The translations under genes were made by a program, and so were the position numbers. A DNA stretch of 64,000 nt from Psilocybe cubensis (Eukaryota), in contig CM039007.1 in assembly GCA_017499595.2 (NCBI GenBank), positions 2,666,001 to 2,730,000 of the forward strand, written 5' to 3'. Below are positions 1 through 53,506 of the stretch, one piece after another. Below the pieces are notes generated by a model. It had not been told where the DNA came from. It saw nothing but the letters and a program-made list of their open reading frames with translations, and made no database searches. Within the stretch, counting starts at the first letter, position 1; each line of letters begins with the position of its first letter.

Positions 1-12
1 GCAGCTCCAGCG

Positions 13-19159: not shown

Positions 19160-21280
19160 TGTCAATGCTGTGGGTGGCATGTACGGCACTGCACTCCAGG
19201 CGGCATCTGTTTCAGGTAATAAATCGGTTGTTGCAGCACTCCTTAAGCACGGCGCGGATATCAATGCTGTCGGTGGCAAGTTCGGCACTGCGCTCCAGGC
19301 GGCATCGTATGCGGGCCATCAATCAGTCGTTAGAGAGCTTCTCGAGTACGGAGCGGATGTAAATGTTGTTGGTGGCGAGTACGGCTCTGCGCTCCATGCG
19401 GCATCATCTGCGGGTCATAATTCGGTGGTTAAAGCTCTCCTACAGTCCGGAGCCGATGTCCATGCTATAGACGGCAAGTTGGGCATTGTGCCCGAGGCAG
19501 CAGCAACTGGGGGACTTATATCATCGGTTGAAGCGTTGCTCACGTACGGCGCACATTTCAATGGTGTGTGTGGCGGGTTTGGTACTGCCCTCCAGGTAGC
19601 ATCATCAGCAGGAAAAGAATTGGTGGTTGAAACACTCCTGCTGCACGGCGCCGATGTTAATGCTGTGGGTGGCAAGTTCGGCACTGCACTCCAAGCGGCA
19701 GCATACGGGGGCCATCAATCATTGGTTGAAGCGCTGGTCAAGCACGGCGCAGATGTAAATGTTGTGAGCGGCTACTATGGCACTGCGCTCCAGGCAGCAT
19801 CTTTTCGTGGTTATAATTCGATGATTGAGACACTCCTCAAGCACGGAGCATATGTGAATGCTGCTATAGGTGGTGTCTATGGCACCGCACTCCAGGCGGC
19901 AGCATGTACAGGCCATGGATCAGTGATTGAGGCACTCCTCAAGCATGGAGCAGATGTCAATGCTGTGGGCGGCAAATATGGAACCGCGCTTCAGGCGGCG
20001 TCGTATATACCAACGTATATTGGTAGCGGTAGCTTGCACACCATGGGAGACTTATATGGGGCCAATCAATCATTGGTCAAGAAATTACTCAAGTATGGAG
20101 CGGATAACAATGCTGTGGGGGAAAATTATGTCTCTGCGCGCCAGGCATTTTTACAATCGCTAGATGAAGCACGCACGCAGCGCAGCACAGAAATCTGGGG
20201 TGTGGGTGGCAATTCCGGCACTTCGATCCAGATAGCATCATCTGTTGGAAAAGATACAGTGGTTGAATTACTCCTGCAGCACGGAGCGGATGTCAATACT
20301 ATGGGCGGCAAGTTCGCCACTGCACTCCAGGCGGCATCTGTTTCTGGATGTACCTCGGTGATTAAAACACTCCTGCAGCACGGAGCAGATGTCAATGCTG
20401 TGGGAGGAATGTACGGAACTGCGCTTCAGGCGGCATCATACAGACCAAAGTATCATAATATGCGGTCCTCGGACCTCATGGAAGACCCATGTAGGGACAA
20501 TCAATCATCTAGCAAAACACTTCTGCAGCATGGCACGGATGTCAACCTTGTGCATGGTGATTTTGGCAAGGCTGCACTCCAGGCAATGTCAATTGGGGGC
20601 TCTTACCCTGTGGTTGAAGCACTACTGAAGCACGGCTCGGATGTGAATATTGTGGGTGGTGCGTTCAACACAGCGCTACAGGCGGCAGCATATGGGGGTC
20701 ATCAATCATTGGTTGGAGCACTACTCAAGCTCGGAGCAGATATCAACGCTGTGGGCGGCTTATTTAACACTGCACTCCATGCTGCATCGTCTGAGGGTCA
20801 TAATTCAGTGGTTGAAGCCTTGCTGCAACACGGTGCAGATGTCAATATTGTATGTGACAAGTTCGGCACTGCACTCCATGCCGCATCGTCTGAGGGTCAT
20901 AATCTGGTTGTTGAAGTACTCCTGCAATACGGCGCAGATGTCAATGTTGTATGTGGCAAGCTCGGCACTCCGCTCCAGGTAGCGTCTCGTTGGGGTCGCC
21001 ACTCGGTTGTCGAAGCACTGCTGCAGCATGGTGCGGAAGTCAATGTTGTCTGTGGCGAGTTTGGCACTGCACTCCATGCTGCATCGTCTAAAGGTCATAA
21101 TTCAGTGGTTGAAGCCCTGCTGCAGCACGGTGCGAATGTCAATGCTATCTATGGCGAGCTCGGCACTGCACTTCATGTGGCATCATTTGTGGGTCATAAT
21201 TCGGTGGTTGAAGTACTCCTGCAATACGGCGCGGATTTCAATGTCATTGGCAAATATGGCACCGCACTCCAGATGGCGTC
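19160..21280 (+). repeat. Tandem ankyrin-repeat coding array (units of about 99 bp)
   Basis: Repeated GATGTCAATGCTGT...GGCACTGCACTCCAGGCGGCATC units encoding 33-aa ankyrin repeats. Confidence 0.9.
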
Positions 21281-22111
21281 TGTCGGAAATTTCAGAACCG
21301 CCTTTTAAGGTCCGCAAGGCCGGAAAGATGCCGGCGGCCTTATGATGCCTTCGTATTTGAAAGGTTGTCTTACTAAGGACAGTCTGTGTTATAAGATAGA
21401 AGCATTATAATACATTTTAAGGGTTTTTGTGCATTTGAAGGTACATAAGGATGATAAGTTAACCAAGTCTTACAAGGCAAGAAATGACATTAGATAGCGA
21501 TGCAAAGATAACGATGAAGTAGACGGCCTAAGGGAGACTTACCTTATGTTCAATGCTCTTACAATTTAGACACTAGCCTTTACTATCTTACCATGACAGA
21601 CTTACCTTACCAGACGAAAGACGCACTCACCGGGGATTGAACACTCACCGCACCTTACAAGACAGAAGCCATAACCACTATACCATGAGGGAATTTCTAA
21701 TTCGTAAAGTGATCTGATCATACCACATTGGTATTATCTTATCTCTGAGATAATCCGCGAACTGATGGGAAGAAGATTTGCCACCGTTTTCGCAATCGAA
21801 ACGTGAACTGAGGACCTTGCAGTGTAAATGAGTGCATCGGATGCAGAGGAAAAAGAATGTGAATATAAAGGAATGTTAATATACACAGGTTGTATCCGTT
21901 GTAAGTGTCTACATAATGAATGGAGTGGTAAATACATCTATCAATCAAACTTCACTCGGTAGGCGAAAACAGATGCATAGACCAACAAAAAGGGAACAAT
22001 GAAGCAACCCATGGTTGGATAGCGAAAGAAGAGTAAGTTTTTTTTTAATGCATAACAACGGTACAAATGTGAATGAGACATCAAAAGACAAATAAACCAC
22101 TATACCAAGAA

Positions 22112-24077
22112 TCACTTTGGTGCATTGCTTCGAGAGCTAGCACGAGTACTGCGGGCCCTTGTTGGAACAATAGTTGCATCTTGTTGAAGAGGTGTGACGG
22201 CTTTCTTCTTCCTCGAACGGACAGGCTTCTGTGGAATAGAAACATGTGCCACTTGTTGTGGCGTGTTTGCGGTAACTGGTGCAGTGTTTGACGATGGATT
22301 TGAAGGACCAGAGTGGTCCTGGAATGAGGTGGAGATACTCGGCAATTCTACAGCAGCAGGGAGAGTGGAGTAAGATGGTAATGTACCCGGATTGTTTGTG
22401 ATTGGTGCATGGGCGCCATCTGAATCCGAATTGTCCGAATTGTCGAGTTCGGCTTCTGGATGAATAATATGCCCGATGTGGGACACTTGTGAGACCTGAG
22501 ATGCAGGGGGACCAAAGTATTCGATGTCCGAGTCAGTTTTATCACCCAAATTGTCGTCCTGTGTTTGAACGGGTGCCTCCAAGTCAATTGTAGACTGGCG
22601 ATTGAAGTTATTGATCACATGCTGCAATGGATCATCGGGGGCTGGCACTAATCCTGTTGATATGATTACAGTTGGCTGTGGGGCAAGCAGAGTTGACGGT
22701 GCTGTTTGCGAATGGGGAAATAATGATGTGTCCCAGAATGAAAAAAGCGATGTAAGGGATTTGTACTGTGTGATGAGATAGCGCTTGTACATATCAAAGT
22801 GGTCCAGATATCGTCTTCCAGTCCGAGATCCTACTCCGCTGCTTGTAAACTCAATATCGTCCGATAACATGTAAATTGCCTGAAAAAGATTTGACAATAT
22901 ATTCAGTAGGGCGTCAATCAAATGTAAAATTGTCAATTTGTTACTTACACATGTAGCGCACCATGCAATTAAGCCTGGAGTTGTGCGATTTTGGCGATTA
23001 TCCATATGCGCATAGGGACTGTCATCACGAGAGCGGCGTACTTCATCACTTTTCAATGCAGATGGTCCCACAATAATGGTTCGGCCAATCTTGTATGAGT
23101 AGTAAGTACAAATAGTTTGTTTAAAAGTTGTAATATAAAGCATACCCGAATGAGCTCATCGGCTTTAAACAGTCCAAGCGCATTTTGAATGTCTGCATGT
23201 GCGTAAAGAAGAGGCGGGAATGCTTCGAGATGAGGATTTGAATAGGATAGCTTCCATTCATTGGTTGTGGGGTCCTTGATACGAGATACGGCGAGCAATC
23301 GTTGTACCTCTGTGTGTTCGCTGAGGTGTTTAACGGGGAGATTAGATGGACGAGATGATGAGCACAAGAGAAAAACAGTCGCTGGAATGGTTGGGAAAAT
23401 AGTTGGAGCAACCCCGCGTAGCTTGTTCAATACGGAGGAGCGAAGATCCGAGATGCCTTTTAAGAACTAAAATCAATGTATACTAAGATTTAAACCTTGA
23501 AAACATTGAAAAATAACGTACCGCTGAGACTGCCAAATCCATATTATCTCCACTGATAATGGAATGGTACTTTGCAGGTATGCATTCGTATAATTCAGCA
23601 ATGTTGGCCAGCCGTGAATTTTCAGCGGTTAAATAACGCCTTTTTGCATCAAATGGGTCAATCGATGGCCTTGGAGACCCGAAGAAGTCCTTGGGGACTA
23701 TAATGCGGTAGAAAGTGGCGTGATACTTTCCAAGTCGATGGAGATCTTTGGTAAGAGCCAGCTCTGCAGAAACATTGACAGTACTCGCAGAGACCTTTTT
23801 CCGCTTAATAAGAGAAAGCTTTGCATTGCTTAGCTCCTCTTGAAGGCTTTTGACTTTGAGTTCTAGAAGCTGGATCGTCTCGCGCTGGCTATTGACCTGC
23901 TAAACATTGTCAAACAAGTGTTAGTGCTCAAATTTGTATACAACACAATATAATGGATGGTTAACTTACAGATTGAAGCTCGTCGTAGGTTGCACGACGA
24001 AATTGTACACCAGAGATAGACTCTTCTCCAGCAACAGAACTTGGAACAATAGATGATGATGCAGATACAGTAGACAT
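22112..24077 (-). CDS. Second (accessory) multi-exon gene of the Plavaka element; function unknown
   Basis: Probable start MSTVSASSSIVPSS at 24077, several GT-AG introns, long last exon ending in a basic, NLS-like tail (PVRSRKKK...RARSTR). Confidence 0.6.
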
Positions 24078-24433
24078 AGTAGAAGCTTGTTGATATTTTT
24101 CCTCGGGGTGTGAAAGAAGAAAATGCCTATAGAAACATACTGTCTGCTCTACATTTGTAGAATTTTGGATAGACAGAGATACACGAACATTTCGTCAACC
24201 TGCAATGAGGCCACACACTAGCTATCACGTGTGAGAATTATATTAAGCGCTCAACGTGGACTTCAAGTATTTTGGGTAGTATGACCATCTGACCTCACCA
24301 AATGAATAAATTTCTTTACAATTCCAGGATGCGATAAGAGATAGGGTAGATATGAGTTCATTTGAGTTCAGATAAGCCTAGAAGTTTAATTTACAGCTTC
24401 TACAAAATGAGTAGCCACTAGAATTTTAATTTA

Positions 24434-27400
24434 TCAGACTTGTACATGTGTACTTAATGTTATCAACTTTAATCGCCACCACATGTCTGGATCAGCTGTG
24501 TCTATGATAATAAACTCATTTGCATCGTGCCCAAAGTCTGCAGCTAGCAAGCCTCCACGTACTATCCGTTGTAGATCAATAACAATTGAATTTGTTCGCC
24601 TCCGGGCACGGACGCGCAAAAAGCGAAGATCCTTGTCGCGTTTGCGTGCCAAAACTGTTCTTCGGTCAATTGGTTCGTCAAATGGAAGTACGAGTGCCAA
24701 ATGATGAGGTGTATCGTCAACATAGACCGAATACATGAAGAGGAGCTGTGCAAAGCAATAATTGTTAGTATCTGATTTAATTAGAACATAGTCATTGCGA
24801 GGTTGGTGGTGGAAGCTTGCGCTAACGCGAACCATATCCCGCTCAAATGACCAGTTAATAATGGACTGGTAGTGAATTCTAGCGAGTTGGAATGGTGCAA
24901 GCTGTGGAAAAATCTATTAATGTCCGTTATAATTACTGTAGAATATATAATACCATGTTGTCAGGCTTCAGCCGAATGGTTTGATTGATGATTTTTGCAA
25001 GACATTTTCCAGTTTTAATTCGGAAACGTCGGAATGCATGATCCTCCTTGTGTGATTCTTCAATACTTTCAAATGAAACTGGATCCATTATGGATCCGAT
25101 TGACACATGGCTCTGTTCTGTATCATCTACAGACTGATCTAGAAGCTTGTTAGAATGGTTCTTGTACGGTAGATAATATTTGCCATATACAAACCTGAAT
25201 TCACTGCTGAAGCTTCCTCGGAAATGTCTTGGAGTGAATTATTGTCCGTTTCACTCGCCTTATTCTCCTCGTTTTCATCGAATGCGTTAATATCCATGCG
25301 AATTATCATTGAAATGAGATCGTCTTCATTCATTTTAAGTATCTGGAGAAGCTGTATAAGTGAGCGGCACTTAAAACATATATTAACTAAAAATACAACA
25401 CCTGTGGCGCCACATTCTTGAAGTTTGTGTGGAAGCGGTACCAGAGTTTCAAAAGCCCATGTGCTTTCTCATTTGGCTTTGTATTGGCATTGCGTGTAAC
25501 ACCCTTTGCCATAATGTCCCGGACCATGTGAATGTGCGAGTGATTTTTTGGAAAGTTCCAGTTCTTTTCTGGATGTAGCTCAGAATATTCCTGTATACAA
25601 AATTTAACAAATTTGCCGCCCTAAATCCAGGCTGAAAACACACCTTGAGAATTAAATTAAATATACCTAGCTCTCGCTCAATTCCAGCCAATGTAGTTGC
25701 ACTTTGGACAGTTAAGGATGAATACATGTCTAGTTCAAGAAAAGACCGCATGAGACGCAGCAGACAGTATCCTCTGTCCGATTTTTCAAGGACATTATGT
25801 GATGCGAATACTATTAACTGTGCAGCCAAAAAAATTGATAATAGTAAGCTCAGTTTGTAGTATTGTCATAAAATTATACTAACCTTTGCCATATCTTCGT
25901 ATTTGCTTCCATCTGCAAATTCACCTGTTTTGATAACAGATGAAAAGTGATTGAGGCCGCTCCATCGAGGTATGCAGTCAAATCTAAATGCATAGATATT
26001 AATTTGAAGAAATATGCAAAGAAATTGATTTTTAGACGTACTGGTTGTCAACCATTTCAGCATCTTTTCTTGTGGTAGTAGACTCTTCAATCACATTCTT
26101 AAATTCAACCCATAAATGATCAGAAAATAGTCCTCCATGGTAGGCATGTAATCGATCCCAGGATAGAGCTTGGTATACATCTGATCCATTCATCATCCAA
26201 AATACATTCTGTGAATATTCAGAAAAATTAAGAAACCAGTTTTGGCATCCATATATATCAAGAAATTATCACGCACCTCAACATTTCGTAGACCATACCT
26301 CTTTAGATGCTCTTCACGGTCTTTAGCATTGAGTTTCTGGGCTTCAGAGTGAATTCTTTCCATTCCGGCTGCTGATCGGATAGGATAACAAGCAGTAAGG
26401 TTTGATAGAGCATCATTTGGCACCAAGCATATAGGACAGGGATAGTTGCTTGTTGCACCACGAGTTAATGCAATGACACATCTAATCCAAACATAGGCAC
26501 CATATACAATTATTTTAGCGCCCAAGAGATTAAATGAAATATTCACATACTGTTCCTCATAATCGGCAGAAATGATAAGAACAAAAAAGAATAACCAACG
26601 CAATATTGCATCAGCACATTTGATGTGGAAACCAGTTGTTGCATACTGTTGGATTGACACTAAAATCTCGTAGAATCCTTTGTGCCATACAATACGCTTG
26701 AAGTTAATAAATAGTGTTTTTCCGCTCTCTCCTGAATCTTCCTCAACCTATAATTTACATAAACCTGAGCTACATACAGCACAGATAATCAGATTTATTG
26801 AATTAACGTACAATCGGGAGCCAACCAACTAATCTACCACCTCCAAGCCCATCTCCATTTCGATCATTTGCAGGAATATTTGCACACCGAGCAATTACCG
26901 GATATCCTTTGGCCGTGCCAAATGTTGAAAGCCTTGTTTTGTCTGCATATAGAACAATACAGAAGGGGAGCGCTCCTAGAGGAAGTTGATCCTAAACTTC
27001 TATGAGTGTGTAAAAAGGGAATATAGAAGTAATTGTACCTGAATTTTCCACCACGTATCTGCTGTCCATGGTTCTCCAATTAGTCTTTCACTGTGTGTAT
27101 TGGTTGTTTTATAATGTCTTTCTGCATTCCAGTGAAATTTTGAAAGAGAAATTGGGTTTAAAACAAGCTCGCTGCACCAATCAAGTAGAGGCCGGACAAA
27201 TACTTCGTATTGAATTTCTTCCTTTTTGTACGGGACCACAAATTCCTTCCGAACAAACTGTTGTGTCTGCATAAGTACATGTTCTTTATTCTGACAAAAT
27301 CACAGTACTTACTCCGCTTGAACGATAGCTTCTAGCAAATTCCCATGTTTTATCCATCTCAGAAGCATTTTCTATTGTAAAAAGGTGCGGATTAGCAATG

Positions 27401-28134
27401 CACTCTTTTATCAGGTTTAGAAGCGTAGCTTTTTGATTCTTGTTCATATGAGTGTCTAATGCAAGCTCTGCAATCTCGAAATCCAGTCGTGTAGCGAAAG
27501 GATGCCATGGTTTATCATGGTTTGGCTTTGGAAGAGCAGAAGTAGCATGTCGTGTGGAATGTGGATCATACTGTGATGTTGGAACAACCTTTGGAGATTT
27601 GTTTGCGCTTGGATGGTACTGTATTCGGACTTCATCTACTGTGTGTGATGAATAACCGCTAGACATTGCATCGAGCATGGAAAGAATTGAGCCACGAGGA
27701 ATAGATTCAAGATCTGGAGCCTCCAGCGCCTCAGATTCTGCATCAGATTGGGAATTAACCAATAGTGTGTCATCCTGCTCGTTGTATGCTGACAGGGCCC
27801 GCTTGTCAGGATTATTGGTTTGTTGCATGTTGACGGATGCGGCATTGGTTGTAGAGTAGGTATTTTGGAGAAGGGAGTTATAAGCACTATTTTCTAGAAC
27901 ATAATAAAGAACCATTTGTACTCATTTTCTATGCGAATGGATAAGCAATATTGGCGTACGCTGTGAGTAAAGTGTACCCGCAAGATTGGAAAATTCATTC
28001 TGTGCAAGCATTGTTGGAGCCTTCTGTTGGCAAGCTTGCATATGGCGGTTAATTCCCATCGTGGTAAATAGCTTGTTGCATCGAGGACAGCATTCAGTCC
28101 TTGGTATCTGACGTGAGCGGTCACGGTCCCCCAT
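24434..28134 (-). CDS. Plavaka transposase (multi-exon), copy 1
   Basis: Exons encode KPWHPFATRLDFEIAE, RPLLDW...EPWTADTWWKIQ, LYADKTRLSTFGTAKGYPV, GGGRLVGWLP, SADYEEQ, PCPICLVP, PRWSGLNHF and HHQPRNDYVLI. I recognise these as the basidiomycete Plavaka family. Confidence 0.8.
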
Positions 28135-31100
28135 AATATACTGCTGTTATTGTTACAGTAAGCAATGATTGATCAAGATACTAGTGAGAGCTAATTCAAT
28201 GAAAAGGGGATCAATGATCAACAGTCAAGTAAGATATGACCTTAAATATGCTCTCAGACGGTTATATATACCAGTATGCACAACCGCATGGCATAGTATG
28301 TTGAATTGAGGCCGCCGTGTTCCAATTCATATGATTGATCCACTCTGCTTTTGCATACCACTGTTTTTCCCATAGTCTTAAAATTAGAGCGTTGTCATGC
28401 CCAGCGTATACATCTTAATAAGACTCCTAACACAATTTTATCTCTAATAAAGCTACTACATCAAACTCACGATGTCAACTTGCAAGAGACATATCTTATC
28501 TCAAGCGTCAAGTTGTGTTATTACCCATCTGTCCGGTTATATTGAAGGCCGGCTTGCACAGCAGCTATAACTCACGGTTGACATGAAATTTAGTCTTAAT
28601 ATATCTCACATTGAACTCTGGTACAGAGAAACTTGAATCTACCATGCCGATAAATGCACTGAGAGGCTGGTATCTGTACTACCCGTCAATGATACGCGAT
28701 TACCTTCTAAGGCAGTGCTTGCCTTTATTTGGCTGCGCTCTCTATCCTTTATAAGGTAATAGCCAAATCTGTTAAGGCTGCCAAGATCCTTCAAAAGGCC
28801 AAATTCGGCCTAGCCAAGGCACGATGGTTATAAGGCTCCCCTGAAAATTCCGACATCATATAGTGGTTCCCACTTGGTAGTTGAAGCACTGATCAAGCAC
28901 GGGATGAATATTAATGCTGTGGGTGACCCGTTAGGTACTGCCCTCCAGGCGGCATCAATGGGGGGCCATCAATCCATGGTTGAAGTGTTGCTTAAGCACG
29001 GAGCAGATGTCAACACTGTGGGTGGCATGTTCAACACTGCACTCCAGGCGGCCTCTTACCAAGGCCATTATCACCTTGTTGACCTCCTGTTGAGTAAAGG
29101 GGCAGATGTGAACGCCTCCGGGGGTAAATCTGGCAATGCACTGCAGGCAGCATGCTCTCAAGCTTGCGAAAAGGTCATCGAATTGCTTTTGAGCCACAAC
29201 GCTAAAGTGACCTCCCTGAACCACCTGAATCGTATCAAAGACCCCGCGCTGAAGGAAAAACTTCGTGTCGCATATTTGGCAAACCAGGAAAATGTGAGTT
29301 CGTATTCCTCATTCATCTTTGACTATCCTGATAGATAGCCGTAGATATCCATCCCTGTTCAACCTATTCAAATTACGCAGGAGAGCTGAGCGGTTAGGGA
29401 TCCGTGTGTAATCTTGCTTCATTTATCTGTTTGAACATTCCTTTACACCTTACCAATGATTCATGTTTTATGTATACCAACGAGAACATAGATGTGTTAT
29501 CCGATACTGACATGCGGGAAATTACACTGTCAGCGCAATACGTTTACCTTGTACAGTTAGGCAATATTAGATATTCATCAAACCCATCAAGGTCTACCAT
29601 GTTACATGACTCGCAGAGAATCCAAGAACGACTCACAAGAGTGCACACAGATTCTGCGGCGAGTCTGATATGACTCGATGGGTCGATGGAGAAAGGCTGT
29701 CACAACATAGCGAGTTTATCAACATGGATCGTCAATGTGTAGGAGATCGACCCTCCGGGTACCCTGAAAGAGCGTGCATGTCAGAGATCTACCAGAACAA
29801 TGTGCTGAGGTGGGTATGCACAAGATTACACAATGGGCACTAGAATTCGAATAAGTTGTTCGGGGAATCATCATTTGAGCCTTCAACATTTCGCCAAAGA
29901 AGTGGGAGTAATATAAATGTGATTGATACGAATCACACTGAAAACTGATTTTGAGAGAGGATGGCAGTAAAAGGACACGTACGCGTATGATAATAAATGT
30001 CCGTCGCCTTGTGTGTGACTGACACTGAATGCGCAGGCTGCCACTGTTGTGGGTCAAAAGCCCACATCTCACGCCTTCCTCTCACACAAGTATGCATTTT
30101 CTTGCAGAAGTTGGGCAGGTATGAGCTTGTGCCTAAGGCACTCATGAGTCACACTCACATTTGCTCTCAACGTTTGCACTCGTACCCCACCCCCGCCTAC
30201 ACTCGTCTTTCAATGTGGCTCTTGGGTTGTCATTGAGCGCGGATTCGAGGGGACGATTGTGGGGAGCGATAGCAAGATAAACACATTGATAACCACTTAC
30301 TTAGTATAACAAGCAGTACACCCTCGCATCACTCCATTCTTTACAGCTCCTCACGAAGTGGTGAAGGTATGTCCTGCTTCATGCTTATGAATGTCGTCCT
30401 TTAAATACACCTTATGCGAGATCCATCTATGCGCGCTATCCCTGCCTTGATGTATGCGCTTCCAGACACGCGCCAAGGAAATAACGAAGGGGATTGTATA
30501 GGAGGTAGAGGACTGGCAGAGTGTGTGCACCTCAGTCAACTCTCTGAACACTATTGTGGTGAGTTGCATTCAAATGACGGTCGGGTATCTGTGTGGACCT
30601 GAGAAAAATTAACTACCATAGGCTCCTACTCTTTCCAAGAGTCCCTTGATGTTCCACCTGGTTCTGTGAGTTGTAAGAAGGAGCGCGGGCCACAGATGGG
30701 GATGGTGACGAGATGGTGGGCCAAGGGCTGAGTCGATGGGTTCCTCGCATGCTGTAGGCAGTTTATAGAGGTTTTTTTTTTTTTTTACAAAAATGGAGTT
30801 CCTTGACCTCGGTAGCACGACGAATGGTGGTTGAAGCAGATACAAAAGCAAGAACAGGGAAACTAGACTGCAGATTTCGTACCTTAGCACTGATGTGCAT
30901 GTACCGAAAATGACACAAGAATGTACAATGAGTCTGATATAGACCTGCGGGGAGAAAATCGTGTCATAGGGATACGTAGAGAAGGTGTGCTGAAATAGCG
31001 AGCTCGTCGACAAACCGTCGAGGTGGGAAGGCAAAAGATCGAACGTCCAGAATTTCAAGATTTAGTTGATGTTTCTGTTGTTGTTGCTGGCCTTCAAATC

Positions 31101-41879: not shown

Positions 41880-44800
41880 TGTCTTTAATCTTTTCGTACA
41901 TCACTTGAATCTGTGTGTTATATGTTCGAACTTGCAGGTAGTTTTGTGTCTTTTGGGGCAAGCATCAATTGGCAGAAATCCAGACTCAGACTAGTATAGA
42001 TTGCTTTAGGGCCGAAATACCACCCATAACGGTCACAGTTTTTCCCGTTTACGCAATATTACACACACTATTGCGAGGTCAATGCGTAGAGCCAAAGGGA
42101 TTGCTTTGACCATTAGTGAGCCACTACAGTCTCGGAAAAAACGACCATTATCATGATTGATGGCAAATTTCAATATATTGGACAGCACGCATTGTAGGTA
42201 ACAAACGAGGCTCCAATCCTCTCCACTTACATTGCACAGAAACGCTTTGATGGTGGGAAGATATATAACTTGAGTCATTTGGTTGTAAAATTTAGAGACA
42301 TAGACTCGGACATGGATTCCTCTTGGAGACAGGGTATGCTGCAATACTAACATGACCAAAATCCAAACAATGTTCGTCGCCCCAGTTAGTAAGTGTATTT
42401 TGTCTGTGGTGTAGCTTCTTCAATAATCTGACTAATATTGACAGTACTATTGTGCCACAAAGCATCGCTTACACGCACCACACAGCTGATCCTGGGGGAC
42501 GCCAGCTTCCGGCCCATATCATCCGTCGTTCTGTCTGCTATAACTTTGATGTGTACTGGTTAGCAAATGAAATTCCAAACCGGGAGCCAAATATACAATT
42601 GATTAGAGGTTTCAACTCCCTCCCTGTTGGGCAAGCAACTCACTTCAACGCTGCGCTTGCATATTCCAATGCACATGATCCGAGGCTTCCTATCCCAAAC
42701 ACCGAGAGGACGTTTAGCGTTCAGCCAAATGTGAGAGTTGCAGTACCGATGTACTTCGCCTCTGCAGACATTCAGGCTCCGGTGAGAAACGCAGAACCAA
42801 TGACCCGCGCCTCTGAAGGCAACCTTCGGACTTCTCCCGGACCCGGGGAGCCCCACTATCGAGTTGCAAACTCCAGCAATATGGTTGAAAGGAGAGCCCA
42901 AGTTTCCCGCATGAAAGATGGTTATTCATGGCATCCTTATGATCCCCAAGCTGCCAAGTTTAAATCTAACCCCAAGGCATCCATGATCAGCTCGTCTGTC
43001 GAACCGTCGCATGATACTGTCACCGTCAAGACTGAAGTTCCATCCTTTGAGGAAACTGCTCTGGCCTGCAAAGCTCCAAGGTCTGAGAAATTCTCTCAGC
43101 TTATCAGCTTTTTTTCACCCCAGGGAGCTCTGAAACTCTTCCCCGTAATTGATTGTCAGTTCCAAAACTGCTCCGCAAGACTAACCGGACTGGACGCCTT
43201 TGCCAAACATATCTTCGGCCCAACCTCCGAGGGCGGGCATGGCCTCCTGTCGGAAATTTCAGAACCGCCTTTTAAGGTCCGCAAGGCCGGAAAGATGCCG
43301 GCGGCCTTATGATGCCTTCGTATTTGAAAGGTTGTCTTACTAAGGACAGTCTGTGTTATAAGATAGAAGCATTATAATACATTTTAAGGGTTTTTGTGCA
43401 TTTGAAGGTACATAAGGATGATAAGTTAACCAAGTCTTACAAGGCAAGAAATGACATTAGATAGCGATGCAAAGATAACGATAAAGTAGACGGCCTAAGG
43501 GAGACTTACCTTATGTTCAATGCTCTTACAATTTAGACACTAGCCTTTACTATCTTACCATGACAGACTTACCTTACCAGACGAAAGACGCACTCACCGG
43601 GGATTGAACACTCACCGCACCTTACAAGACAGAAGCCATAACCACTATACCATGAGGGAATTTCTAATTCGTAAAGTGATCTGATCATACCACATTGGTA
43701 TTATCTTATCTCTGAGATAATCCGCGAACTGATGGGAAGAAGATTTGCCACCGTTTTCGCAATCGAAACGTGAACTGAGGACCTTGCAGTGTAAATGAGT
43801 GCATCGGATGCAGAGGAAAAAGAATGTGAATATAAAGGAATGTTAATATACACAGGTTGTATCCGTTGTAAGTGTCTACATAATGAATGGAGTGGTAAAT
43901 ACATCTATCAATCAAACTTCACTCGGTAGGCGAAAACAGATGCATAGACCAACAAAAAGGGAACAATGAAGCAACCCATGGTTGGATAGCGAAAGAAGAG
44001 TAAGTTTTTTTTTAATGCATAACAACGGTACAAATGTGAATGAGACATCAAAAGACAAATAAACCACTATACCAAGAATCACTTTGGTGCATTGCTTCGA
44101 GAGCTAGCACGAGTACTGCGGGCCCTTGTTGGAACAATAGTTGCATCTTGTTGAAGAGGTGTGACGGCTTTCTTCTTCCTCGAACGGACAGGCTTCTGTG
44201 GAATAGAAACATGTGCCACTTGTTGTGGCGTGTTTGCGGTAACTGGTGCAGTGTTTGACGATGGATTTGAAGGACCAGAGTGGTCCTGGAATGAGGTGGA
44301 GATACTCGGCAATTCTACAGCAGCAGGGAGAGTGGAGTAAGATGGTAATGTACCCGGATTGTTTGTGATTGGTGCATGGGCGCCATCTGAATCCGAATTG
44401 TCCGAATTGTCAAGTTCGGCTTCTGGATGAATAATATGCCCGATGTGGGACACTTGTGAGACCTGAGATGCAGGGGGACCAAAGTATTCGATGTCCGAGT
44501 CAGTTTTATCACCCAAATTGTCGTCCTGTGTTTGAACGGGTGCCTCCAAGTCAATTGTAGACTGGCGATTGAAGTTATTGATCACATGCTGCAATGGATC
44601 ATCGGGGGCTGGCACTAATCCTGTTGATATGATTACAGTTGGCTGTGGGGCAAGCAGAGTTGACGGTGCTGTTTGCGAATGGGGAAATAATGATGTGTCC
44701 CAGAATGAAAAAAGCGATGTAAGGGATTTGTACTGTGTGATGAGATAGCGCTTGTACATATCAAAGTGGTCCAGATATCGTCTTCCAGTCCGAGATCCTA

Positions 44801-45312
44801 CTCCGCTGCTTGTAAACTCAATATCGTCCAATAACATGTAAATTGCCTGAAAAAGATTTGACAATATATTCAGTAGGGCGTCAATCAAATGTAAAATTGT
44901 CAATTTGTTACTTACACATGTAGCGCACCATGCAATTAAGCCTGGAGTTGTGCGATTTTGGCGATTATCCATATGCGCATAGGGACTGTCATCACGAGAG
45001 CGGCGTACTTCATCACTTTTCAATGCAGATGGTCCCACAATAATGGTTCGGCCAATCTTGTATGAGTAGTAAGTACAAATAGTTTGTTTAAAAGTTGTAA
45101 TATAAAGCATACCCGAATGAGCTCATCGGCTTTAAACAGTCCAAGCGCATTTTGAATGTCTGCATGTGCGTAAAGAAGAGGCGGGAATGCTTCGAGATGA
45201 GGATTTGAATAGGATAGCTTCCATTCATTGGTTGTGGGGTCCTTGATACGAGATACGGCGAGCAATCGTTGTACCTCTGTGTGTTCGCTGAGGTGTTTAA
45301 CGGGGAGATTAG

Positions 45313-45589
45313 TGTCAGGGTACGTATTAGTGCCACCCCTATCCGTTATCGTTATCTGTTACGGTCCCACGCTGTCATGCCTTGTTCTATCTTTGTGTTC
45401 GGTCCCACGTCTATCGTTCTCCTGTTTCATCTATTGATAGTTGTCATATGTCGAGTACTCTGGTCCGGGAAGTAGTTACTCCGGTCTCCATGTATATATA
45501 GGGTCCTGGGGTCAGTAGTCAGACCCCAGCTTCGATATCAACTTGGTCTTTGGGCATTCTTCTCTCTTGACTTAAGTCAATTCCTAACA
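45313..45589 (+). repeat. 5' LTR (277 bp)
   Basis: TGTCAGGG...TCCTAACA; TATATATA at 45493-45500. Confidence 0.95.
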
Positions 45590-45591
45590 GC

Positions 45592-45602
45592 ATATCGAAG
45601 CT
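45592..45602 (+). promoter_or_regulatory. Self-priming primer-binding site (Tf1-type)
   Basis: ATATCGAAGCT, 2 nt after the 5' LTR, is the exact reverse complement of AGCTTCGATAT (45528-45538), which lies ~28 nt downstream of the LTR TATA box. Confidence 0.8.
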
Positions 45603-45680
45603 ACCCAACGTTGCCCTGGTACTCTATCCACTGCAGCGCTCGTCTACTCTACTCTACCTTGCCCCCACCTACTATACTCT

Positions 45681-46577
45681 ATGGCCGACCCTCCTTCGCC
45701 TTACGATGGGTTCATGACGATGTCCCTCGAGGACCGTTTCGCCCTCCTCTTTAGGGCGCAGCAAGTCCGGTTCGACGCCGATAAAAAGGTTGATGACCGA
45801 CTGTCTGCCATCGAGTCTAAACTCGAACGCCTCACGGCCTCCCTACCCAAACCGCCTGCCGCTCCCACTCCCTCTGCTCGCGCACCTCGCGCTCGACGCA
45901 CCTCTAGGAAGGAACGCCCGGCTGCACCTACCTCTACCCCTACTACAGGGCCCCTGCACTCCCAATCCATCCGCTCTACTACTACCAGAGCCGCCCTCGA
46001 GAAGATCGTCGCTACCCTGTCTATCGCGGATGAACAGGCTGGCCACGTCATAGGGCGCGCGGGAACTGGCTTACGCCAAATCCATGACATCTCGCACGCA
46101 AAGATCTCGGTCTCCCCCGTCGTCACCTCCGGTTTGCGTGCCGTCACTATCAGGGGCACCGCTCGTGAAGTCGGTGATGCTCTTTCTGCTATCGGCAAGC
46201 GGATTGCCCGTCGTCGCATCCGCAACCCTAGGTCCAAGAAGCCTAAACAGCCTCCTGCGCCCACTGCCGCCCCTCCTACCCTCGTCGTTGAACCTCCTTC
46301 TCCTACTCCAACCTCGAGCTCTACCCCAACTACGCGGACATCCCGTTCCGGGACGGCTTCTCCGCATTCGCCCACTCCTACGGCTGTTGACACTCGCTCC
46401 AGCCCATCCTCGTCGCTCGCCCCTGGTTCGCCTATGGAGGTGGACGCTCTCAGGGCTCCGCAGCAACACTCTGACGGTTACTCTCGCCCCGGGCCTGTTC
46501 AGCCTAGGGAGGGAATTCAGACCGCGCGTCGTGGCGGTGGACCGCCTCGTGTCTTTGGTGCAAACCGTCCACGGTGA
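45681..46577 (+). CDS. 298 aa protein: short coiled coil, type I KH domain, Pro/Ser/Thr-rich disordered flanks
   Basis: LSIADEQAGHVIGRAGTGLRQIHDISHAKISV...RAVTIRGTAREVGDALSAI carries the KH signature (IGxxG loop, VTIxG). Intronless. Confidence 0.85.
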   Translation: MADPPSPYDGFMTMSLEDRFALLFRAQQVRFDADKKVDDRLSAIESKLERLTASLPKPPAAPTPSARAPRARRTSRKERPAAPTSTPTTGPLHSQSIRSTTTRAALEKIVATLSIADEQAGHVIGRAGTGLRQIHDISHAKISVSPVVTSGLRAVTIRGTAREVGDALSAIGKRIARRRIRNPRSKKPKQPPAPTAAPPTLVVEPPSPTPTSSSTPTTRTSRSGTASPHSPTPTAVDTRSSPSSSLAPGSPMEVDALRAPQQHSDGYSRPGPVQPREGIQTARRGGGPPRVFGANRPR

Positions 46578-46618
46578 AGACCAGGTCGTTGGGACACCGA
46601 CCTTTAGAGGGGAGGTGA

Positions 46619-46895
46619 TGTCAGGGTACGTATTAGTGCCACCCCTATCCGTTATCGTTATCTGTTACGGTCCCACGCTGTCATGCCTTGTTCTATCTTT
46701 GTGTTCGGTCCCACGTCTATCGTTCTCCTGTTTCATCTATTGATAGTTGTCATATGTCGAGTACTCTGGTCCGGGAAGTAGTTACTCCGGTCTCCATGTA
46801 TATATAGGGTCCTGGGGTCAGTAGTCAGACCCCAGCTTCGATATCAACTTGGTCTTTGGGCATTCTTCTCTCTTGACTTAAGTCAATTCCTAACA
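46619..46895 (+). repeat. 3' LTR (277 bp)
   Basis: Appears identical to 45313-45589 by eye. Confidence 0.95.
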
Positions 46896-47988
46896 ATTAG
46901 ATGGACGAGATGATGAGCACAAGAGAAAAACAGTCGCTGGAATGGTTGGGAAAATAGTTGGAGCAACCCCGCGTAGCTTGTTCAATACGGAGGAGCGAAG
47001 ATCCGAGATGCCTTTTAAGAACTAAAATCAATGTATACTAAGATTTAAACCTTGAAAACATTGAAAAATAACGTACCGCTGAGACTGCCAAATCCATATT
47101 ATCTCCACTGATAATGGAATGGTACTTTGCAGGTATGCATTCGTATAATTCAGCAATGTTGGCCAGCCGTGAATTTTCAGCGGTTAAATAACGCCTTTTT
47201 GCATCAAATGGGTCAATCGATGGCCTTGGAGACCCGAAGAAGTCCTTGGGGACTATAATGCGGTAGAAAGTGGCGTGATACTTTCCAAGTCGATGGAGAT
47301 CTTTGGTAAGAGCCAGCTCTGCAGAAACATTGACAGTACTCGCAGAGACCTTTTTCCGCTTAATAAGAGAAAGCTTTGCATTGCTTAGCTCCTCTTGAAG
47401 GCTTTTGACTTTGAGTTCTAGAAGCTGGATCGTCTCGCGCTGGCTATTGACCTGCTAAACATTGTCAAACAAGTGTTAGTGCTCAAATTTGTATACAACA
47501 CAATATAATGGATGGTTAACTTACAGATTGAAGCTCGTCGTAGGTTGCACGACGAAATTGTACACCAGAGATAGACTCTTCTCCAGCAACAGAACTTGGA
47601 ACAATAGATGATGATGCAGATACAGTAGACATAGTAGAAGCTTGTTGATATTTTTCCTCGGGGTGTGAAAGAAGAAAATGCCTATAGAAACATACTGTCT
47701 GCTCTACATTTGTAGAATTTTGGATAGACAGAGATACACGAACATTTCGTCAACCTGCAATGAGGCCACACACTAGCTATCACGTGTGAGAATTATATTA
47801 AGCGCTCAACGTGGACTTCAAGTATTTTGGGTAGTATGACCATCTGACCTCACCAAATGAATAAATTTCTTTACAATTCCAGGATGCGATAAGAGATAGG
47901 GTAGATATGAGTTCATTTGAGTTCAGATAAGCCTAGAAGTTTAATTTACAGCTTCTACAAAATGAGTAGCCACTAGAATTTTAATTTA

Positions 47989-50900
47989 TCAGACTTGTAC
48001 ATGTGTACTTAATGTTATCAACTTTAATCGCCACCACATGTCTGGATCAGCTGTGTCTATGATAATAAACTCATTTGCATCGTGCCCAAAGTCTGCAGCT
48101 AGCAAGCCTCCACGTACTATCCGTTGTAGATCAATAACAATTGAATTTGTTCGCCTCCGGGCACGGACGCGCAAAAAGCGAAGATCCTTGTCGCGTTTGC
48201 GTGCCAAAACTGTTCTTCGGTCAATTGGTTCGTCAAATGGAAGTACGAGTGCCAAATGATGAGGTGTATCGTCAACATAGACCGAATACATGAAGAGGAG
48301 CTGTGCAAAGCAATAATTGTTAGTATCTGATTTAATTAGAACATAGTCATTGCGAGGTTGGTGGTGGAAGCTTGCGCTAACGCGAACCATATCCCGCTCA
48401 AATGACCAGTTAATAATGGACTGGTAGTGAATTCTAGCGAGTTGGAATGGTGCAAGCTGTGGAAAAATCTATTAATGTCCGTTATAATTACTGTAGAATA
48501 TATAATACCATGTTGTCAGGCTTCAGCCGAATGGTTTGATTGATGATTTTTGCAAGACATTTTCCAGTTTTAATTCGGAAACGTCGGAATGCATGATCCT
48601 CCTTGTGTGATTCTTCAATACTTTCAAATGAAACTGGATCCATTATGGATCCGATTGACACATGGCTCTGTTCTGTATCATCTACAGACTGATCTAGAAG
48701 CTTGTTAGAATGGTTCTTGTACGGTAGATAATATTTGCCATATACAAACCTGAATTCACTGCTGAAGCTTCCTCGGAAATGTCTTGGAGTGAATTATTGT
48801 CCGTTTCACTCGCCTTATTCTCCTCGTTTTCATCGAATGCGTTAATATCCATGCGAATTATCATTGAAATGAGATCGTCTTCATTCATTTTAAGTATCTG
48901 GAGAAGCTGTATAAGTGAGCGGCACTTAAAACATATATTAACTAAAAATACAACACCTGTGGCGCCACATTCTTGAAGTTTGTGTGGAAGCGGTACCAGA
49001 GTTTCAAAAGCCCATGTGCTTTCTCATTTGGCTTTGTATTGGCATTGCGTGTAACACCCTTTGCCATAATGTCCCGGACCATGTGAATGTGCGAGTGATT
49101 TTTTGGAAAGTTCCAGTTCTTTTCTGGATGTAGCTCAGAATATTCCTGTATACAAAATTTAACAAATTTGCCGCCCTAAATCCAGGCTGAAAACACACCT
49201 TGAGAATTAAATTAAATATACCTAGCTCTCGCTCAATTCCAGCCAATGTAGTTGCACTTTGGACAGTTAAGGATGAATACATGTCTAGTTCAAGAAAAGA
49301 CCACATGAGACGCAGCAGACAGTATCCTCTGTCCGATTTTTCAAGGACATTATGTGATGCGAATACTATTAACTGTGCAGCCAAAAAAATTGATAATAGT
49401 AAGCTCAGTTTGTAGTATTGTCATAAAATTATACTAACCTTTGCCATATCTTCGTATTTGCTTCCATCTGCAAATTCACCTGTTTTGATAACAGATGAAA
49501 AGTGATTGAGGCCGCTCCATCGAGGTATGCAGTCAAATCTAAATGCATAGATATTAATTTGAAGAAATATGCAAAGAAATTGATTTTTAGACGTACTGGT
49601 TGTCAACCATTTCAGCATCTTTTCTTGTGGTAGTAGACTCTTCAATCACATTCTTAAATTCAACCCATAAATGATCAGAAAATAGTCCTCCATGGTAGGC
49701 ATGTAATCGATCCCAGGATAGAGCTTGGTATACATCTGATCCATTCATCATCCAAAATACATTCTGTGAATATTCAGAAAAATTAAGAAACCAGTTTTGG
49801 CATCCATATATATCAAGAAATTATCACGCACCTCAACATTTCGTAGACCATACCTCTTTAGATGCTCTTCACGGTCTTTAGCATTGAGTTTCTGGGCTTC
49901 AGAGTGAATTCTTTCCATTCCGGCTGCTGATCGGATAGGATAACAAGCAGTAAGGTTTGATAGAGCATCATTTGGCACCAAGCATATAGGACAGGGATAG
50001 TTGCTTGTTGCACCACGAGTTAATGCAATGACACATCTAATCCAAACATAGGCACCATATACAATTATTTTAGCGCCCAAGAGATTAAATGAAATATTCA
50101 CATACTGTTCCTCATAATCGGCAGAAATGATAAGAACAAAAAAGAATAACCAACGCAATATTGCATCAGCACATTTGATGTGGAAACCAGTTGTTGCATA
50201 CTGTTGGATTGACACTAAAATCTCGTAGAATCCTTTGTGCCATACAATACGCTTGAAGTTAATAAATAGTGTTTTTCCGCTCTCTCCTGAATCTTCCTCA
50301 ACCTATAATTTACATAAACCTGAGCTACATACAGCACAGATAATCAGATTTATTGAATTAACGTACAATCGGGAGCCAACCAACTAATCTACCACCTCCA
50401 AGCCCATCTCCATTTCGATCATTTGCAGGAATATTTGCACACCGAGCAATTACCGGATATCCTTTGGCCGTGCCAAATGTTGAAAGCCTTGTTTTGTCTG
50501 CATATAGAACAATACAGAAGGGGAGCGCTCCTAGAGGAAGTTGATCCTAAACTTCTATGAGTGTGTAAAAAGGGAATATAGAAGTAATTGTACCTGAATT
50601 TTCCACCACGTATCTGCTGTCCATGGTTCTCCAATTAGTCTTTCACTGTGTGTATTGGTTGTTTTATAATGTCTTTCTGCATTCCAGTGAAATTTTGAAA
50701 GAGAAATTGGGTTTAAAACAAGCTCGCTGCACCAATCAAGTAGAGGCCGGACAAATACTTCGTATTGAATTTCTTCCTTTTTGTACGGGACCACAAATTC
50801 CTTCCGAACAAACTGTTGTGTCTGCATAAGTACATGTTCTTTATTCTGACAAAATCACAGTACTTACTCCGCTTGAACGATAGCTTCTAGCAAATTCCCA

Positions 50901-51689
50901 TGTTTTATCCATCTCAGAAGCATTTTCTATTGTAAAAAGGTGCGGATTAGCAATGCACTCTTTTATCAGGTTTAGAAGCGTAGCTTTTTGATTCTTGTTC
51001 ATATGAGTGTCTAATGCAAGCTCTGCAATCTCGAAATCCAGTCGTGTAGCGAAAGGATGCCATGGTTTATCATGGTTTGGCTTTGGAAGAGCAGAAGTAG
51101 CATGTCGTGTGGAATGTGGATCATACTGTGATGTTGGAACAACCTTTGGAGATTTGTTTGCGCTTGGATGGTACTGTATTCGGACTTCATCTACTGTGTG
51201 TGATGAATAACCGCTAGACATTGCATCGAGCATGGAAAGAATTGAGCCACGAGGAATAGATTCAAGATCTGGAGCCTCCAGCGCCTCAGATTCTGCATCA
51301 GATTGGGAATTAACCAATAGTGTGTCATCCTGCTCGTTGTATGCTGACAGGGCCCGCTTGTCAGGATTATTGGTTTGTTGCATGTTGACGGATGCGGCAT
51401 TGGTTGTAGAGTAGGTATTTTGGAGAAGGGAGTTATAAGCACTATTTTCTAGAACATAATAAAGAACCATTTGTACTCATTTTCTATGCGAATGGATAAG
51501 CAATATTGGCGTACGCTGTGAGTAAAGTGTACCCGCAAGATTGGAAAATTCATTCTGTGCAAGCATTGTTGGAGCCTTCTGTTGGCAAGCTTGCATATGG
51601 CGGTTAATTCCCATCGTGGTAAATAGCTTGTTGCATCGAGGACAGCATTCAGTCCTTGGTATCTGACGTGAGCGGTCACGGTCCCCCAT
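47989..51689 (-). CDS. Plavaka transposase (multi-exon), copy 2
   Basis: Same exons as 24434-28134, with an R>W change (LMRSF to LMWSF). Confidence 0.8.
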
Positions 51690-53506
51690 AATATACTGCT
51701 GTTATTGTTACAGTAAGCAATGATTGATCAAGATACTAGTGAGAGCTAATTCAATGAAAAGGGGATCAATGATCAACAGTCAAGTAAGATATGACCTTAA
51801 ATATGCTCTCAGACGGTTATATATACCAGTATGCACAACCGCATGGCATAGTATGTTGAATTGAGGCCGCCGTGTTCCAATTCATATGATTGATCCACTC
51901 TGCTTTTGCATACCACTGTTTTTCCCATAGTCTTAAAATTAGAGCGTTGTCATGCCCAGCGTATACATCTTAATAAGACTCCTAACACAATTTTATCTCT
52001 AATAAAGCTACTACATCAAACTCACGATGTCAACTTGCAAGAGACATATCTTATCTCAAGCGTCAAGTTGTATTATTACCCATCTGTCCGGTTATATTGA
52101 AGGCCGGCTTGCACAGCAGCTATAACTCACGGTTGACATGAAATTTAGTCTTAATATATCTCACATTGAACTCTGGTACAGAGAAACTTGAATCTACCAT
52201 GCCGATAAATGCACTGAGAGGCTGGTATCTGTACTACCCGTCAATGATACGCGATTACCTTCTAAGGCAGTGCTTGCCTTTATTTGGCTGCGCTCTCTAT
52301 CCTTTATAAGGTAATAGCCAAATCTGTTAAGGCTGCCAAGATCCTTCAAAAGGCCAAATTCGGCCTAGCCAAGGCACGATGGTTATAAGGCTCCCCTGAA
52401 AATTCCGACACCGCCAGCCTTACTACAAACCACCGGCGTCCTGCCCGTGGACAGGCTGCGAGATGACTCGCAGCCCGGGACGGCTTGCAAGTCATATCCT
52501 CACGCATGCAAAAGTGCGGTATATATGTGTGTTGTGTGAGAGGTTGAAGACGACTATTAAATGCAAGGCGGCTAATCATGTGAAGGAGGAGCATTGGGAC
52601 GAAAGTACAATGGGAGTATGGAACTTGGAGGAAGCGGAAAGGTTTTGGAAGGAAGTACATTTCCGGGACGAGGGTTGTGAGTATGCTGCAAAGAGGGTAT
52701 AAGTATGGGTCGAGTGTTGGCATTTGGGTCTGAGATTTTATTTCTACAATATGGTTTATGTTTATAATATGATGTCTTTCCATCACGCCAGAATTAAAGA
52801 GCTATAAAAAGTGTGAATCCTTTCTTTATAACCTTACAGGAATTTGCATGGTATCTGGTATGCGTGCGTGAATAATAACTCGTTTATGGGCATGTATTCA
52901 CCCTTGTCAGAGTATCAATTAGTGTCCATGCTCCTCATATTGTATTAACGCTTTTATATAAAGCTCCTCAGCACTACATATATTCTACTCCCTTTATCAG
53001 TAGAGAACAGGCTGTAAATTGATCCCTAGGTAATTCAGAGGTAGGGAAGCCTTGAAATCACTGAGTCAGTACCTACATACTTACTGCCAGAGGCTTGGCG
53101 CCCACGATAAGATTACAGATCAGCGTGATATGTCATTGCCAATGAGCTGGCTCTGGCTGGATTGTCACCCCGTGCGAACTTACCAGCAAGAACTGCCGAC
53201 GTTTGTGATGCAGCAAGATTCTACCTAGAGCATGCCAGGTACTGGCATAGCAAATTAATCGTTCTTTTAGGTCTATCGATATGAAAGTAGCTGTAATTTG
53301 AAAAGCAATTTGTGCCTTTGGAAGCCTCCAAATGCATTGACAAGGCATTTGGGGACTTCGTCACTTTTGCCGATGGACATCCCACGCTTTTGATGACCAG
53401 ATTCAACTTAATTACACACCGCAAAGCGCCAAGTCCCCGACTTTCTGGTACTAGTATGTGAATATATCAACGGACTGGTCTTACACTTCAAGCTTCAATC
53501 TCAACC

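Follow-up and report, generated by a model that had tools for sequence, protein, structure and literature searches.

A probable family of small non-autonomous LTR retrotransposons in Agaricales with a predicted self-primer and a single KH-domain gene

The stretch of the Psilocybe cubensis genome analysed here (64,000 nucleotides; contig CM039007.1 of assembly GCA_017499595.2, forward-strand positions 2,666,001 to 2,730,000; hereafter the window, from the first letter of which all positions are counted) contains, at 45313-46895, a compact long terminal repeat (LTR) element of 1,583 bp that encodes a single K homology (KH) domain protein. The element is read on the plus strand and is bounded by two 277 bp LTRs, TGTCAGG...CTAACA (45313-45589 and 46619-46895), with the TG..CA termini of LTR retrotransposons; the first-pass annotation of the window had described these repeats as apparently identical, and the measured identity is 100%. 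The target-site duplication (TSD) ATTAG can be read directly on both sides (45308-45312 and 46896-46900) and its 5 bp fall within the 4-6 bp expected of such elements. Both priming landmarks of an LTR retrotransposon are present, namely a polypurine tract (PPT), AGAGGGGAGG, at 46606-46615, also read directly, 3 nt ahead of the 3' LTR, and a primer-binding site (PBS), ATATCGAAGCT, at 45592-45602, 2 nt past the 5' LTR, which is a self-primer site and not a tRNA site. Within the 5' LTR, a TATA-like box, TATATATA (45493-45500), lies 35 nt upstream of the predicted transcript start, with the same spacing in related elements; U3 extends over about 45313-45527, and R together with U5 over about 45528-45589. 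The 1,029 bp interior is filled for the most part (897 bases, or 87%) by one open reading frame (ORF) of 298 amino acids at 45681-46577, as reported at first pass. Other ORFs overlap the interior; the 298-amino-acid ORF is the sole long one in the sense orientation and the one with a family match. The G+C content of this ORF is 62%, compared with 45% for the window and 46% for the LTR of the element itself.

The element is inserted in the second of two copies of a 7.58 kb element (21273-28855 and 43239-52410) that are 99.76-99.96% identical. The left blocks (21273-23345 and 43239-45312; 99.76% identity) and the right blocks (23341-28855 and 46896-52410; 99.96%) are offset by 1,588 bp, that is, by the 1,583 bp of the element and the 5 bp of the TSD. 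The sister copy retains the empty target site, with a single ATTAG at 23341-23345, and reads ...GGGGAGATTAGATGGACG... at this point. Given the near identity of the sister copies and the empty site, the insertion of the KH element is younger than the duplication of the transposon, and the identical LTRs agree with a recent event. Contigs of two DNA sequencing runs from the same species (X1 and X2) diverge into other flanks exactly at 45313 and, as loose contig ends, at 46895/46896, which independently confirms the boundaries and indicates that other insertions exist. The TSD, PPT and empty site noted at first pass could all be read directly, and the view of the locus as a recently mobile, non-autonomous element is upheld by the identical LTRs, the empty site and the interior of only 1,029 bp without pol. 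Contig depths, which are not copy numbers, were 45.1 and 25.7 in the flanks, about 352 and 162-169 in the interior unitigs, and 1,247 in one LTR unitig. A joint that skips the 1,588 bp is present in both runs; at positions 45257 and 45260, the X1 contig at this joint matches neither window copy. This joint may derive from the sister copy or from a third copy of the transposon, and it was not used as evidence of an empty allele or of polymorphism.

The main new result concerns the priming of reverse transcription, given that the PBS was left unexplained at first pass. There is no TGG behind the 5' LTR, so that the 3' end of a tRNA is ruled out as the primer. The PBS is the exact reverse complement of AGCTTCGATAT at 45528-45538, which directly follows a CCCC, starts 35 nt after TATATATA and comprises the predicted first bases of the RNA, at the start of R. 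An 11-nt match of this kind was reached in 1 of 2,000 shuffles of the LTR. This layout, with a PBS perfectly complementary to the predicted start of the element's own transcript, is that of Tf1-type self-priming, in which the transcript itself, rather than a tRNA, would supply the primer. In the sources consulted, self-priming is described as first demonstrated for Tf1 and proposed for Tj1 (PMC4600332), and as common in Tf1/Sushi elements and predicted for the Tcn1 chromoviruses and the plant TAR lineage of Copia (PMC6317226); the Tcn1 clade is reported from basidiomycetes (PMC2864245). On both strands of the window, the combination of a TATA box, a primer and a CA-proximal PBS has no match other than the KH element.

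The same arrangement recurs in relatives of the element that were collected by a scan of metagenome contigs and amount to 29 loci (L001-L029), or 30 elements with the window copy. A perfect complement of 10-13 nt between primer and PBS is found in the window copy and in 18 loci, with the PBS 0-3 nt after the 5' LTR, and one further locus (L020) has a complement of 9 nt. The leader or R region is off the contig in seven loci, which stand outside this count (L003, L010, L016, L021, L022, L023 and L029), and no complement was seen in the decayed L009, L018 and L027. There are 16 different primer sequences, each paired with its own PBS. When the 19 elements whose matches reach at least 10 nt are aligned, RNAalifold predicts an 11-bp helix between primer and PBS, with compensatory changes in 11 of 13 predicted pairs. 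Paired cells make up 98.0% of this alignment; shuffles give 74.2%, none of 500 being as high, and sliding the partner by 1-3 columns lowers the proportion to 30-46%. Cells changed on both sides number 59 where 15.8 are expected. The R motif consists of the primer followed by ATCAACTTGG. The end of U5, which adjoins the PBS, is conserved and C-rich (CCCTAACA or CCCTTACA), with an invariant C-T-.-A-C-A in the 19-element alignment. A short hairpin, GGGGTC-AGTAGTCA-GACCCC (45503-45527), also lies downstream of the TATA box and upstream of the predicted transcript start, and terminates in the CCCC ahead of the primer. Hairpins of differing sequence recur at this place in the LTRs of L004, L006, L012, L013, L014 and L017; that of L012 is GCTGAGGTATCG-T-CGATACCTCAGC.

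The protein is composed, in this order, of a long helix (residues 16-53), a basic patch, a type I KH domain (residues 109-177, encoded at 46005-46211 on the plus strand), a basic tail, KRIARRRIRNPRSKKPK, a disordered region rich in proline, serine and threonine with the motif SPMEVD, and the RGG-like C terminus QTARRGGGPP. The KH domain with an intact GxxG loop was recognised at first pass from the sequence, with the absence of a profile match left as an outcome that would tell against it; Pfam KH_1 (PF00013) matches residues 112-171 with 35.6 bits against a cut-off of 21.5 (E 7.6e-9), and both AlphaFold2 and Foldseek agree. The AlphaFold2 model, built from 33 homologues (31-99% identical), is confident solely for the helix 16-53 and the KH domain, with predicted local distance difference test (pLDDT) scores of 83-95 for blocks of residues 111-170 and below 50 for the remainder of the protein. 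In the model, the domain has the beta-alpha-alpha-beta-beta-alpha order of elements (strands 109-116, 141-144 and 152-159; helices 117-124, 126-138 and 161-177), that is, a type I KH fold with the GxxG loop, here G125-R-A-G128, between two helices. G125 and G128 are invariant among the 33 homologues, and none of the 12 invariant columns of the alignment falls outside the KH domain and the beginning of the basic tail.

A Foldseek search of the PDB yielded 56 matches at E <= 1e-3, and all those listed are KH domains. The ten best (TM score 0.80-0.89) are all KH domains of hnRNP K and PCBP, led by hnRNP K KH3 and those of PCBP1/2 (E 2e-6) in complex with C-rich single strands. From this fold, the protein is predicted to bind single-stranded RNA or DNA. 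By analogy with the C-rich preference of its hnRNP K/PCBP relatives, one could speculate that the C-rich end of U5 is a candidate binding site; the same bases coincide with what an integrase (IN) would recognise. In the ESM Atlas only Basidiomycota KH clusters were retrieved, with scores of 0.85 and 0.81, below the level that counts as more than a lead. A pairing model of the N-terminal helix (two copies of residues 1-60) scored 0.04, with a mark of 0.32, and gives no evidence either way. Neither a Gag capsid fold nor a CCHC zinc knuckle was detected by Pfam, in the AlphaFold2 model or by Foldseek, and the 298-residue sequence contains no cysteine. Protease (PR), reverse transcriptase (RT) and IN are likewise absent by Pfam (where only KH_1 is above the cut-off), AlphaFold2 and Foldseek, in line with the first-pass description, so that the set of PR, RT, RNase H and IN that defines an autonomous Ty3/Gypsy or Ty1/Copia element is not encoded.

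The family is multicopy in P. cubensis. The window protein matches annotated proteins of this species at 99% identity, and its 90% cluster comprises 14 distinct P. cubensis sequences, 12 of which (the window's own included) have 298 amino acids, these variants coming from contigs of at least seven different sizes. A second cluster holds two sequences of 275 amino acids, and there are five partial paralogues. Together with the differing flanks in the two DNA runs, these counts dispose of the possibility, considered at first pass, of a single copy. The 298-amino-acid variants are 94-99% identical to the window copy, the prevailing differences being R>C/H, S>L and P>L/S replacements; at the DNA level, C>T and G>A dominate the differences between copies (42 of 56 in X1 and 16 of 21 in X2). 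Such an excess is a pattern of methylation-deamination or one resembling repeat-induced point mutation. Judging by these substitutions, inserted copies in P. cubensis decay through transitions, the expected fate of silenced repeats.

Relatives are found at 76% identity in Agrocybe pediades, at 55% and 52% in Psilocybe cf. subviscida, at 47% in Dendrothele bispora, and also in one Termitomyces species; many more are on environmental contigs of 1-2 kb. A profile search against 1.84 billion representative proteins retrieved 71 clusters at E <= 1e-30 and 257 at E <= 1e-10. The 33-member alignment shares the same order of parts throughout: the helix (LxxRLxAxES), the basic patch, the KH domain, the basic tail (GKRxARRRxRxP...KKK), the disordered P/S/T-rich region with SPMxxD, and QTARRGGGPP. 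In 13 of the 29 metagenome loci, the KH ORF is framed by a pair of direct repeats spaced 1.25-1.85 kb apart or by a contig-end overlap of that period, and L011, L012 (TSD ACAAC) and L017 contain complete elements including flanks. The LTR-start motif, usually TGTAAGGGGA, is present in 17 loci and follows a G-rich PPT 3' of the ORF in 14. The stop codon of the ORF lies about 40-120 nt ahead of this motif in 11 elements (the window copy and L001, L004, L007, L008, L012, L013, L015, L017, L024 and L026). Intact ORFs, of 265-362 amino acids, are present in 14 loci; those of L006, L009, L011, L016, L018, L025, L027 and L028 are decayed, and the other non-intact loci are cut by the contig end or shorter. 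Three proteins of 759-781 amino acids (P0139, P0146 and P0148) have the same N-terminal helix and KH domain and a longer tail, which consists of a low-complexity part of roughly 450 residues and a short conserved C-terminal segment. In two loci, a piece of a second family member is located directly upstream of the 5' LTR, namely an R-U5-PBS fragment in L007 (2-91) and the 3' part of an ORF in L015 (2-256); these pieces point to nested or tandem LTR-interior-LTR-interior arrays.

Neutral decay of the ORF across copies, which was named at first pass among the outcomes that would tell against the proposal, along with those already mentioned, is not what is observed. Nonsynonymous and synonymous divergence (dN and dS) was estimated by the Nei-Gojobori method on codon alignments of the 15 intact ORFs among the 30 elements, with decayed ORFs left out. 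Pairs with dS of 0.25-0.8 give dN/dS values of 0.18-0.30 for the complete ORF and of 0.02-0.14 for its KH part; pairs further apart have reached saturation (dS above 1), with dN/dS still below 1. Values so far below 1 imply that the ORF is maintained along the transposing lineage even though single insertions decay, and the substitution pattern thus places the KH ORF under purifying selection.

Taken together, these features likely define a family of small (about 1.25-1.85 kb) non-autonomous, self-priming LTR retrotransposons of Agaricales, with a young copy in the window, that are mobilised in trans and carry a KH protein of their own. The account as a whole, which we consider probable, is that of a helper-dependent element that combines the complete cis-acting outfit of an LTR retroelement and a self-primer with one selected KH ORF and lacks enzymes. 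RNA polymerase II would start at 45528, about 35 nt past the TATA box, and the 5' end of the transcript would fold back onto the PBS. The RNase H of the helper would then cut off the primer, and its RT and IN would copy the element and insert it with a 5-bp duplication. Mobilisation in trans by a self-priming Ty3/Gypsy chromovirus is a well-supported inference from the parallel with known self-priming elements, and the most likely helper would be of the Tf1/Sushi or Tcn1 type. More tentatively, the KH protein might take the place of Gag or nucleocapsid in handling the RNA of the element, through leader binding, helix-driven multimerisation, chaperoning of primer annealing or delivery of the RNA to helper particles. 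The family is undescribed as far as literature searches reach: no published description of an LTR element encoding a KH protein was found in the literature, although Repbase and Dfam were not covered and an unpublished or database-only entry is possible.

Several observations weigh against this account. RNA binding and multimerisation by the KH protein, and any part it may play in transposition, are putative. Non-synonymous C>T changes are numerous among the P. cubensis paralogues, and single copies decay, as is usual for transposons. The set used for dN/dS consists of half of the elements and favours conserved copies. The transcript start at 45528 is a prediction, and runs X4 and X5, which are guessed to be RNA, gave nothing on the element and are uninformative on its expression. 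No helper has been identified, and the sole autonomous element of the window, a Gypsy element at 1-6297, has unrelated LTRs and a gag region without similarity to the KH protein. An autonomous relative in which a gag-like ORF of its own, upstream of pol, encodes the KH protein is possible, protein searches alone being insufficient to reveal it. Of the first-pass proposal that the KH element is a parasite of an autonomous Gypsy element, dependence on a helper of the Ty3/Gypsy type is supported indirectly by the self-priming signature, which the sources describe for Tf1/Sushi and Tcn1 chromoviruses and, in plants, for the TAR lineage of Copia; the roles suggested there for the protein (packaging, protection, anti-silencing) are putative. 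No helper was found in the window.

The Gypsy element of the window is cut by the left window edge. It has an open polyprotein frame of 1,877 amino acids (1-5634) with aspartic protease, RVT_1, RNase H and integrase zinc-binding domains; no rve or chromodomain match was obtained at E <= 0.001. Its probable 3' LTR, TGTAGGG...CCCTACAACA, is located at about 6011-6297, behind a G-rich PPT. It was considered as the helper and rejected, as there is no similarity in LTR or gag, and the resemblance in the G-rich PPT and the termini (TGTAGGGA...CCCTACAACA compared with TGTCAGGG...CCTAACA in the KH element) is loose and too weak to use.

The best surviving alternative is that an autonomous Gypsy or Copia family uses the KH protein as its Gag, and that the 1.6 kb copies are gag-only derivatives that have lost pol. 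The ORF comes directly after the leader, where gag sits; Gags without a zinc knuckle exist, that of Tf1 reportedly being one; and the DNA census is limited to the window and contigs. Nevertheless, this possibility appears unlikely. Under it, the compact layout, with the stop shortly ahead of the 3' LTR, would hardly be kept across lineages with dS above 1; its retention past synonymous saturation implies that the mini form is old and is itself the propagating unit, rather than the product of repeated fresh deletions. Gypsy pol is absent from all 29 loci, within up to 4 kb of flank (tblastn with the polyprotein of the window Gypsy element), and the predicted fold includes no capsid-like domain. 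Protein searches argue in the same direction: the best 150 of 1,164 profile matches include no fusion with pol and none longer than 845 amino acids, and the ten long or selected ones that were scanned with Pfam gave only KH domains in nine cases and no match in one (P0007). As weak evidence, a search for longer, fused proteins found none at E <= 0.001 among 7,999 candidates.

Alternatively, the KH protein might serve in counter-defence or regulation, shielding the RNA from silencing or decay or tuning the translation of the element or its helper, with no part in packaging. Cellular KH proteins of the PCBP/hnRNP K type stabilise and regulate mRNAs, and the C>T changes gained by inserted copies suggest that the family is subject to silencing and mutation by the host. 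We consider this improbable, as no result speaks for it specifically, and a diffusible anti-silencing factor would also benefit competitors, so that selection would maintain it less readily in a parasite of a parasite. Finally, the idea that the ORF is a captured host gene fragment with no role in transposition, kept, if at all, for an effect on the host, has in its favour that LTR elements can transduce host sequence and that the KH domain, here of the PCBP/hnRNP K type, is an ordinary cellular RNA-binding module, but it is very improbable, given that, across Agaricales, conservation of the full architecture (helix, basic patch, KH, basic tail, SPMxxD, QTARRGG) is confined to LTR-flanked units, that the domain is 23-30% identical to the domains of one of the best-scoring multi-KH proteins in the profile search, which makes a recent capture unlikely, and that purifying selection persists on a lineage surviving solely by transposing.

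Apart from the Gypsy element, the surroundings of the KH element in the window are as follows. The 7.58 kb element that hosts it has terminal inverted repeats (TGTCGGAAATTTCAG... and ...CTGAAAATTCCGACA) and is probably a DNA transposon; its ORFs, for instance the minus-strand one of 347 codons at 44079-45122, gave no Pfam match. An ankyrin-repeat ORF of 906 codons with tandem units of 99 bp (33 amino acids) occupies 18588-21308, and more ankyrin-like units are located at 28907-29206, just past the right end of the first transposon copy. With such units on both sides, this copy seems to have landed inside an ankyrin-repeat gene.

Among known systems, LINE-1 ORF1p, which combines an N-terminal coiled coil, one single-strand RNA-binding domain (an RNA recognition motif, RRM) and a basic C-terminal region, resembles the predicted model of the KH protein in the logic of its parts (a helix, a single-strand RNA-binding domain, and basic or RGG-like tails) and in being encoded by the element. 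It differs in having an RRM rather than a KH domain, belongs to the non-LTR class and shows no homology, and multimerisation of the KH protein is putative. The best sequence and structure matches, PCBP1/2 and hnRNP K, share the type I KH domain with GxxG; they are, however, products of single-copy host genes with three such domains each, in contrast to the one KH domain in a transposon, with 20-33% identity between them. BARE-2 of barley is said to be a gag-only non-autonomous LTR element that kept one structural or RNA-handling protein and borrows enzymes. The KH element shows the same economy; however, the protein retained in BARE-2 is a Gag, and that retained here has a KH domain, with no capsid fold or zinc knuckle found.

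Miniature terminal-repeat retrotransposons (TRIMs) and large retrotransposon derivatives (LARDs) are similar in general organisation, having LTRs, a PBS, a PPT and a TSD, no pol and helper-dependent movement. Both are usually defined as non-coding, TRIMs being shorter and LARDs much larger; for TRIMs, this definition is also given in PMC6934838. The KH element differs from both classes in that 87% of its interior is a conserved ORF under purifying selection; in particular, its 1,583 bp with a conserved ORF of 897 nt do not agree with the very small, non-coding interior of a TRIM. The priming signature is closest to that of Tf1 of Schizosaccharomyces pombe and Tj1 of S. japonicus, where the PBS complements roughly the first 11 nt of the element's own mRNA, not a tRNA (PMC4600332). 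The position of the primer just 3' of the LTR TATA box, the 5-bp TSD and the TG..CA LTRs are likewise described for Tf1, Tj1 and the Tcn1 clade (PMC4600332, PMC2864245, PMC6317226). Tf1 and Tj1 are autonomous (Gag, PR, RT and IN; about 5 kb), unlike the enzyme-less 1.6 kb KH element, and membership of the Tf1/Sushi or Tcn1 clade is putative, the element having no RT or IN of its own by which to be placed in a tree.

The immediate consequence for genome annotation is that at least 20 P. cubensis gene models, labelled 'hypothetical' or 'K homology domain-containing', are transposon ORFs, and the same holds for comparable models in other mushrooms. Descriptions of non-autonomous LTR elements usually present them as gag-only remnants or, for TRIMs and LARDs, as non-coding. 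The KH family departs from this pattern: it is compact and old, with a layout kept past synonymous saturation; it still moves, as indicated by identical LTRs and by an empty site that survives in a 99.8% identical paralogue; it retains under strong purifying selection a non-Gag protein predicted to bind RNA; and, to judge by its sequence, it uses the rare self-priming route. A more specific proposal, open to considerable doubt, is that these are 'satellite' retrotransposons in which Gag has been swapped for a KH nucleoprotein that coats or marks the element's own self-priming RNA and then delivers it to the RT and IN of an unrelated chromovirus. If so, this would be the first LTR-element lineage with a KH-domain RNA-handling protein, a protein that would correspond, among LTR elements, to LINE-1 ORF1p or to the hepatitis delta antigen. 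Altogether, the family offers a small, tractable system for studying the minimal protein contribution of a parasitic retroelement and the route by which a hitch-hiking RNA reaches the enzymes of its helper, and it allows one to ask whether a KH domain can replace the function of a nucleocapsid.

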